Sequence record: PP532814.1
Direction: 5' to 3' (one strand)
Source: Escherichia phage vB_EcoP_06
Length of the DNA stretch: 51,775 nucleotides
In this document: positions 15,390 to 15,891 of the stretch, piece by piece
Position numbering within the stretch: the first letter of the stretch is position 1
Layout of the letters: every line of letters begins with the position of its first letter
Made by a program: the position numbers and the translations under genes
The notes under the pieces: generated by a model
Seen by the model: only the letters and a program-made list of their open reading frames with translations
What the model was told of the DNA's origin: nothing
Databases searched by the model: none

Positions 15390-15420
15390 TTTGGTGTCTC
15401 CTTAGTTGTTGTTGGTTTCA

Positions 15421-15464
15421 ACTATACACGATCTTGCGGTGGGCGTTTAGCAAAAAGTGCTATT
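15421..15464 (-). promoter_or_regulatory. phage promoter box variant + 17 bp + -10 TATAGT (minus strand), upstream of lipoprotein gene
   Basis: AATAGCACTTTTTGCTAAAC on minus strand. Confidence 0.45.
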
Positions 15465-15834
15465 CTTGTTCTTTTTGTTCTCCGGTGTTCTCAAATCTGC
15501 GGAGTCTTAAATTTAGCTCAAAAATCGAACAACAATAGAGCGCAATACATACAGATAAATATATATACATACATATAAATCAATAAGTTAGTAGTATATA
15601 TATTCATGTTTGTTCTTTATTGTTATCTATGTTTTGTGTGATTTTGTGTGTCTGGTGATTTTTCTGTGATTATGCATGTGTCAGTGGTTATGTGTGTCTA
15701 TATATCTATATCCGGCGCAAATGGAGGAACAAGAGAACAAAAAGACAACAAAGGTATTTATCAATCACTTACATGTGAATTTTGTTATCCAATTCTCCTA
15801 GAACGTTGTTAGAACAGAAAAAACAAAATAACTA

Positions 15835-15862
15835 TTGACTAAACGCATCAAATAGCTACAAT
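15835..15862 (+). promoter_or_regulatory. sigma70-like promoter for the recombination module (TTGACT-16-TACAAT)
   Basis: Hexamers TTGACT and TACAAT separated by 16 bp, about 30 bp upstream of the exonuclease ATG. Confidence 0.5.
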
Positions 15863-15891
15863 GCAGACATACCAACCAATGAGGGCAAATC

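Follow-up and report, generated by a model that had tools for sequence, protein, structure and literature searches.

A duplicated, iteron-bearing intergenic module upstream of two early promoters in T1-like phages of the family Drexlerviridae

Escherichia phage vB_EcoP_06 carries two copies of one intergenic module of about 350 bp; the copies are paralogous, and the module is conserved across the family Drexlerviridae. They are contained in the window, i.e. the whole stretch of 51,775 nucleotides of record PP532814.1 that was analysed. One copy occupies the intergenic region between cor and recE (region A, 15390-15891), and the other (about 37056-37433) lies within the intergenic region between the two early arms (region B, 36791-37464); the regions are 21.5 kb apart and both separate divergent genes in this phage. 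The copies are homologous, share one conserved architecture in which phased iterons flank unusually unstable duplex DNA, and change their iterons in concert, and copy B is inherited together with an adjacent gene for a DUF7174 protein. The reading that we prefer, at a probability of roughly 45%, is that the copies are paired nucleoprotein-assembly sites that may serve as an autoregulated operator or enhancer of early promoters.

The window represents a T1-like, Hanrivervirus-like phage of the subfamily Tempevirinae (Drexlerviridae). T1 belongs to the seven classical T phages, and Drexlerviridae turn up frequently in phage collections, among therapy candidates and as laboratory contaminants. 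Positions 15300-16000 are 93-97% identical to Hanrivervirus-type T1-like phages (pSf-1, Henu8, haarsle and others). Some 18-20 GenBank records named “Campylobacter phage” (MG0656xx) are 93-96% identical over the same interval and are probably contaminants or entries with mislabelled hosts. Based on the ORF list, the composition profile and the names in related records, plus-strand tail genes extend up to 14196 and are followed by three small minus-strand genes (14225-15389), the last of which is cor (15120-15389). The recE gene, encoding exonuclease VIII (15892-16953, plus strand), opens a recombination module of recE, erf and ssb. The leftward early arm (minus strand) ends at 36790, and the rightward arm (plus strand) starts at 37465. 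Region A had been annotated as free of ORFs and is so: no conserved ORF was found between the flanking cor and recE genes, and even relatives with 93-97% identity do not agree in the frame and position of stop-free stretches of at least 35 codons. In the part of region B to the left of the element, GGAATAA/TTATTCC repeats occur at 36887-36930 and an IHF consensus at 36974-36986 (minus strand), beside some deposited genome ends (about 37000 in haarsle). Because position 1 of the T1 record and the start of its terminal repeat fall in the equivalent region, 36880-37050 is probably the pac or terminus region.

The first-pass annotation had suggested that region A shares degenerate repeats with DNA at about 37150-37300, and this similarity is real. 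The local alignment spans about 150 bp and has a score of 46; dinucleotide shuffles score 22 ± 3.4, and 0 of 500 reached 46. Block shuffles that keep the local succession of AT-rich and then GT-rich composition reached it in 0-1 of 500 cases, so that the similarity goes beyond base composition. A profile HMM of 406 positions, made from region A of nine other phages with the window excluded, matches region A of the window at an E value of 5.7e-51, and the only other significant same-strand match in the 51.8 kb is 37056-37380 (E 6.5e-16, profile positions 47-387 of 406). The copies are colinear and homologous over about 330 bp on the same strand. A weak minus-strand match of region A to its own profile (15645-15554, E 0.0025) arises because the region contains an internal palindrome. 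The pairing extends to relatives: of 22 other phages, 17 have a region B that the region A profile matches, the best at an E value of 5e-38. Searched with this profile, TLS has exactly two loci on the same strand (28712-29102, E 2e-76, and 113-518, E 7e-26), and a profile of the T1 group finds two in T1 (29900-30314 and 199-501, E 5e-101 and 2e-8, respectively).

Both copies present the same parts in the same order. Three to four direct iterons, 9-11 bp apart, are followed by a CCGGCG/GCGGAG motif and by inverted iterons; next come an AT-rich core of alternating purines and pyrimidines, further direct iterons, and a GT-rich spacer of 80-100 bp that includes GGTGAT. A TATATAT run with CCGGCG then precedes three inverted iterons, and finally one direct and two to three inverted iterons extend to within a few bp of the -35 hexamer; region A additionally contains IHF consensus sequences. 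The TGTGTG- and ATATAT-type repeats by which the two regions had initially been likened do not define the element. Its defining repeats are TTGTTCT in A and TGTTAT in B, arranged in phased direct and inverted arrays. TGTTCT is found 6 times in A (0.23 expected) and TGTTAT 12 times in B (0.64 expected), an enrichment with p values of 1e-7 to 5e-12 against the genome, and the 400-nt bins of the genome that are richest in TGTT[CA]T, 36801-37200 and 15601-16000, fall in the two regions. The direct arrays at 15466-15491, 15610-15635, 37056-37090 and 37189-37204 are all phased repeats with a spacing of 9-11 bp.

In copy A, array 1 (15466-15491, plus strand) consists of TTGTTCT, TTGTTCT and GTGTTCT, 9-10 bp apart, and corresponds to the conserved profile block TTTTGTTccacggTGTTctc. 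It is followed by the motif CTGCGGAG (15497-15504), the counterpart of the CCGGCG/CCGCA block seen in other lineages and a relative of the main Eclunavirus iteron, TTGCGGAGG. Inverted iteron sequence on the minus strand, GAACAACAA (15527-15535), closes this first unit. Array 2 (15610-15635, plus strand) comprises TTGTTCT, TTGTTAT and TGTTTT at exactly 10 bp, and the run TATATATCTATAT followed by CCGGCGC (15712-15718) occupies 15698-15718. Array 3 (15726-15751, minus strand) has three to four inverted iterons, GGAACAA, AGAACAA and AAGACAA/ACAACAA. The promoter-proximal iterons (15782-15832), ending 3-8 bp from the -35 hexamer, are the direct TTGTTAT (15782-15788) and the inverted AGAACG (15800-15805), AGAACA (15811-15816) and AAAACAA (15820-15826). 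In copy B, unit 1 (37056-37123) comprises the direct iterons CTGTTAT, GTGTTGT, CTGTTAT and GTGTTAT (37056-37090), CCGGCGT (37092-37098) and two inverted iterons (37107-37123). Array 2 (37189-37204, plus strand) is CTGTTAT and GTGTTAT, and the inverted and promoter-proximal iterons (37303-37394) include GATAACAC, AAATAACA, the palindrome TTGTTGTCTT..AAGACAACA and ATAACAA.

The spacing of these blocks is constrained. The inverted iterons of unit 1 are separated from array 2 by 68 ± 2.6 bp in 22 A and B copies, and the distance from the CCGG block to the inverted block is quantised across phages at about 19-22, 28-29 or 37-41 bp. Spacer steps of about 10 bp, together with conserved block distances, are as expected from helix-face constraints. 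Architecture, spacing and motif positions are kept across subfamilies whose flanking proteins share only 62-80% identity, and the iterons come close to the -35 hexamer in every lineage, including Ec_L1, despite the TAGCAC-class promoter found there.

The AT-rich core of A (15544-15608) contains a 19-nt run of alternating purines and pyrimidines (15559-15577) as well as an imperfect palindrome, and the core of B (37124-37188) is part of the duplex segment that ranks as the least stable in the genome. With nearest-neighbour stability as a thermodynamic proxy for unwinding, 37106-37205 ranks first and 15544-15643 second among 100-bp segments (z about +5, third segment 3.4). The two cores hold the top two ranks at scales of 40, 60 and 100 bp (z +4.2 to +5.1, third 3.4-4.2). 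The third least stable segment (29413-29590), which is unrelated to elements A and B by profile search, has an IHF consensus at 29535 and TTGACT at 29548 and lies upstream of a small ORF starting at 29577, the product of which looks membrane-associated. GATC, present at 295 sites genome-wide (5.7 per kb), is missing from 15431-15891 and 36966-37464, where about 5 sites in all would be expected; AT-richness may account for this, and the depletion is too weak a signal to build on.

Downstream of the cores, the GT-rich spacer of A (15630-15700, plus strand) is 81-85% G+T, with GGTGAT at 15654-15659. That of B, within 37189-37288 on the same strand, has GGTGAT at 37234-37239 and an alternating purine-pyrimidine run at 37263-37275. 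The most G+T-rich 80-nt windows of the genome are 15610-15689 (81%, z 4.6) and then 37204-37283 (79%, z 4.2). The composition of the spacer is conserved, its sequence only weakly. GTGTC, considered as a primase site of the T7 type, has three occurrences in the spacer of A that relatives do not share, and LexA-like and DnaA-like near-matches that had been picked out by eye in T1 likewise lack conservation.

Two putative IHF sites are present in copy A. Site 1, AATCAATAAGTTA (consensus WATCAANNNNTTR), is at 15578-15590 (plus strand), and a strict match is found in a comparable position, between -312 and -345 relative to the recE start, in 14 of 45 related loci. Site 2, TATCAATCACTTA (15759-15771, plus strand), is about 90 bp upstream of the expected transcription start. 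At this site the strict consensus is found in 24 of the 45 loci, at -133 or, in the T1 group, at -141 on the opposite strand; in one locus (L047) the site at -133 has been displaced by an insertion. The positions in A are kept in several lineages, but the strict consensus is absent from the B element of the window and from the TLS group, and 9 of 22 other copies of region B have a match in the AT-rich core at the equivalent position.

Each copy ends at a promoter of the host type. The sigma70-like sequence TTGACT-16-TACAAT recorded for region A by the first-pass annotation is confirmed at 15835-15862 (plus strand) as the predicted promoter of the recE-erf-ssb operon. It agrees with the consensus at 10 of 12 positions and corresponds to P51 of TLS (29110-29137), and of 45 related loci, 40 carry a counterpart between -56 and -63 relative to the start of recE. 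The promoter of the rightward early operon, TTGACA-17-GATAAT (37405-37433, plus strand, 11 of 12 matches), corresponds to TLS P01 (523-549). For TLS, the passages on promoters in PMC11447400 report only three intergenic sigma70-like promoters, P51 and P01 among them. The leftward cor operon has a promoter of another, family-wide class (15421-15462, minus strand), with the core of a 21-nt repeat, TAGCACTTTTTGCTA, at 15448-15462, 59 nt upstream of the cor start, and the -10 sequence TATAGT at 15421-15426. The pattern TAGCANNNNNTGCTA, with at most one mismatch, occurs 20 times in the window (1.8 expected); such a 21-nt intergenic repeat is described for TLS in part of the same paper (PMC11447400).

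Each copy of this repeat, TAGCACTTTTTGTTAAAA, is followed by a short hairpin of variable sequence in which the complementarity of the stem is kept (e.g., GCCAGG..CCTGGC, CCCGAC..GTCGGG), and then, at a distance of about 22 nt from the repeat, by TGnCATAAT/TATAAT, which resembles an extended -10 sequence. The 20 sites include 37952-37966, 38415-38429 and 26220-26234 and, on the minus strand, 35222-35236 and the copy upstream of cor. The passages of the TLS paper that deal with the repeat (PMC11447400) make no mention of the hairpin.

Region A had also been described as marking a polarity switch. The flanking genes are indeed divergent in this phage, but region A of TLS has no leftward gene and that of Ec_L1 (Eclunavirus) lies between co-directional primase and recE genes; element A travels with the upstream region of recE, not with the strand switch. 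In Ec_L1 (8249-8822 of locus L091), recE-erf-ssb is inverted relative to the tail genes and directly downstream of primase, and the element opens with five tandem CCTCCG(T/C)AA repeats at a spacing of 10 bp. Since promoters of the 21-nt-repeat class stand at both sites in Ec_L1, the element is independent of the sigma70 promoter class.

The sequence of the iterons differs between lineages. Types TGTTC/TGTTAT are found in Tempevirinae and TGTAATC in one locus (L036), T1 has GTAACA and GATTAAC/ATTACG, and Ec_L1 uses an unrelated iteron, CCTCCGCAA (CCTCCG(C/T)AA), in both A and B and within the same architecture. The A and B iterons of one genome are of the same or a closely related type and change in concert. 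Phages of the same host, E. coli K-12, differ in their iterons, which argues that the reader is likely to be encoded by the phage and not a binder supplied by the host.

The best candidate for this reader is the DUF7174 protein (159 aa), the product of the first early gene (37465-37944, plus strand), directly downstream of copy B. Its fold combines a winged-helix-like N-terminal domain with long C-terminal helices, as judged from structural matches that are weak (Z at most 6.6) and mixed with unrelated folds; a DUF7174 profile had no match among PDB sequences. The gene has the same position in TLS (gp01) and most lineages and is weakly recognisable in T1 (gp77). All named matches in homology searches were T1-like phages, so that genomic context from outside this group is lacking, and a locus search with the protein of the window returned 3 loci only. 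Positions 37071-37948, i.e. element B from its first array, the promoter and the DUF7174 gene, have been swapped as one cassette between phages whose flanks are about 95% identical (L052, L084). The left edge is at 37070, and the right junction coincides exactly with a 21-nt repeat (37949); in keeping with a cassette edge, the records of many relatives match only query positions 1-280/291.

The assignment of DUF7174 as reader is subject to several observations. Region A is about 95% identical in phages whose DUF7174 alleles are only about 29% identical, which means either that both alleles read TGTT(C/A)T or that another protein binds A. Ec_L1 has the element, but DUF7174 was not detected in the 6.5 kb on the region-B side of its helicase gene (L086). 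Comparison of the DUF7174 recognition helix with iteron type in about 10 lineages yielded no residue-to-base code. There is a coarse trend for divergent helices (T1, L066 group) to go with iterons of the GTAACA type.

The proposal that the two regions are related control-type elements holds in that they are homologous, colinear copies, each just upstream of a strong promoter; as to function, regulation and origin both fit. For regulation, the following scheme is suggested. A lineage-specific phage protein, most plausibly DUF7174, would bind the iterons, which lie about one helical turn apart in opposed direct and inverted arrays, and IHF-type bends and flexible AT- and GT-rich spacers could let the arrays fold onto each other. 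Through the promoter-proximal iterons the complex would act on two early promoters read by the host RNA polymerase (sigma70), that of recE-erf-ssb at A and that of the early operon at B, which would also express DUF7174, resulting in autoregulation. This logic would be comparable to that of the early operator region of phage Mu with its IHF site. That proteins bind here at all, which phage protein does so, whether IHF takes part and in which direction transcription is regulated are matters of prediction from sequence. Early regulation is ranked first on three grounds: in every lineage the iterons reach as far as the -35 hexamer, the element is never found without a promoter, and element B and DUF7174 are co-inherited. 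In favour of an operator, only 3-8 bp separate the last iterons from the -35 hexamers at 15835 and 37405, and the same arrangement is seen in other lineages. Against it, the least stable segments and the 80-100-bp GT-rich spacer are not obviously needed for regulation and fit an origin at least equally well, and the AT-rich core, 230-290 bp upstream of the promoter, is far away for ordinary promoter control.

A strong rival, which we regard as quite possible and which is compatible with a regulatory role, is that A and B are replication origins, or one origin and an auxiliary cis site. In this scheme, a phage protein bound to the iterons would melt the AT-rich core together with IHF, with transcription close by assisting, and the core would receive the helicase and primase of the phage. 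Autoregulation of the initiator gene would be mediated by the inverted iterons near the promoter, as happens in iteron plasmids (pSC101, F). The order of parts speaks for such a role: an AT-rich core (with the IHF consensus in A and in 9 of 22 other B copies), direct iterons, spacer, inverted iterons, promoter and a small gene for a winged-helix-like protein. So does the duplex stability of the AT-rich cores, which is lower than anywhere else in the genome. Like replicon modules, element B is exchanged in one cassette with the gene next to it, and Ec_L1 keeps the element between primase and recE despite a changed promoter type. The general design of iteron origins, including phasing and the requirement for nucleoid proteins, is reviewed in PMC5043065, and passages of PMC11447400 and PMC7718038 report that an origin of T1-like phages was not found. 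On the other hand, the window has 4 DnaA boxes (TTWTNCACA) and none is in A or B, although many phage origins are DnaA-independent, so that an origin may lack them. The iterons, of 6-7 bp with a period of 10 bp, are short compared with the classical 17-22 bp. DUF7174 is small (159 aa, one DNA-binding-like domain) and heads an operon of small early genes, away from the replication genes, and it is recE, not an initiator gene, that lies downstream of copy A. A more specific version, in which “oriA” (upstream of recE) and “oriB” (beside pac) would be the origins of T1-like phages, opened by DUF7174 and IHF in a complex that also autoregulates early transcription, we consider possible but less likely than not. 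If it is true, Drexlerviridae would fall into replicon specificity types according to which oriB-DUF7174 cassette they have acquired by exchange.

The regions might also resemble each other as recombination hot spots, module boundaries or packaging DNA that has no protein-binding function of its own. This is improbable, since architecture, spacing and motif positions are conserved across subfamilies and the iterons of A and B change in concert. The earlier idea of hot spots at module boundaries is partly borne out by comparison of relatives: at B, the swapped cassette ends at 37070, at the edge of the element. At A, several close relatives have 14223-15334 replaced (the three minus-strand genes, including cor except for its first 18 codons), and the sharp mosaic junction at 15335, near A, falls inside cor and outside the element. 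B adjoins the probable genome terminus or pac region, where position 1 of the T1 record and the start of the haarsle record fall, but copy A is far from it. Finally, a structured non-coding RNA, i.e. a long hairpin formed by the AT-rich palindrome and a GU-rich arm, is highly improbable. The plus strand of A does fold below the free energy of shuffled sequences (z -3.3, hairpin at 15520-15645), and a TATAAT-like block is conserved at the left edge of the AT-rich core in many phages. However, the two strands fold about equally (A minus strand z -3.35; B plus -2.0 and minus -4.5), and this strand symmetry fits a DNA palindrome, not an oriented RNA. The folding palindrome consists of opposed iteron arrays around the AT-rich core; since its arms carry the motif that also occurs in phased direct repeats, covariation of the arms follows iteron change. 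No -35 sequence precedes the TATAAT-like block, no conserved terminator was seen, and the GT-rich part is conserved in composition, not in sequence. Rfam searches of the whole window and sensitive scans of both regions gave no match at gathering scores or at E <0.2, and at E values up to 1 only a chance AT-rich hairpin match, to mir-1277 (21.6 bits, gathering score 81).

The analysis defines a conserved, duplicated cis module at the level of single bases and gives DUF7174 a testable role. Module and gene together form an exchangeable cassette, and the questions of origin and early regulation become directly testable; among the questions named as open in one of PMC11447400 and PMC7718038 are early regulation and the intergenic repeats. 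PMC11447400 already reports the TAGCAC repeat of 21 nt and three sigma70 promoters, whereas no description of the duplicated module of about 350 bp, its family-wide conservation or its linkage to the DUF7174 cassette was found in the literature searched. The 21-nt repeat aaATAGCACnnnTTGnTAAAA, as given in that part of PMC11447400, occurs in the same genomes, with copies at 15448-15462 (minus strand) and 36857-36871, at region A and at the left end of region B, that each serve leftward genes. It differs from the element in motif and in number: a genome has about 20 copies, each immediately preceding a gene, compared with two copies of about 350 bp for the element. Likeness can also be seen to the promoter-early stem-loop cassettes (PeSLs) of T4-type phages (PMC2839356, PMC4122927), where conserved regulatory sequences are junctions of modular exchange, much as the right junction of the B cassette is a 21-nt-repeat promoter. 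PeSLs, however, are short promoter-terminator motifs in many copies and not assemblies of iterons and IHF sites.

Comparison with the iteron origins of pSC101, F (RepE) and R6K gamma (pi) reveals the same phased direct repeats by an AT-rich, meltable segment with an IHF site, which in the present element is putative, and the same inverted repeats at the promoter of a downstream gene whose product has a winged-helix-like domain. In contrast, their iterons measure 17-22 bp; the element has iterons of 6-7 bp with a 10-bp period, lacks DnaA boxes and possesses an extra GT-rich spacer. It also has three opposed pairs of arrays in place of a single array, and DUF7174 is half the size of a Rep protein. 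Among phages, SPP1 (oriL/oriR) and P4 (ori/crr, with the iteron TGTTCACC) have two cis sites, and they share with the present case that two related sites lie far apart on one genome. The early operator of Mu comprises O1-O3, with an IHF site between the divergent promoters Pe and Pc, and its repressor has a winged-helix domain and a coiled coil. Both systems have a control region of about 200-350 bp upstream of an early promoter, with many short sites in both orientations and with an IHF bend and looping, which for the present element are predicted, and in both the binder, which at the present element would be DUF7174, combines a winged-helix domain with long helices. DUF7174 nevertheless resembles the Mu repressor neither in sequence nor, as far as could be detected, in structure; T1-like phages, which are virulent, lack a lysogeny switch, and their element is duplicated at a second operon. 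An element of this kind is familiar, and what is new is the pairing, the three opposed arrays and the conserved GT-rich spacer.
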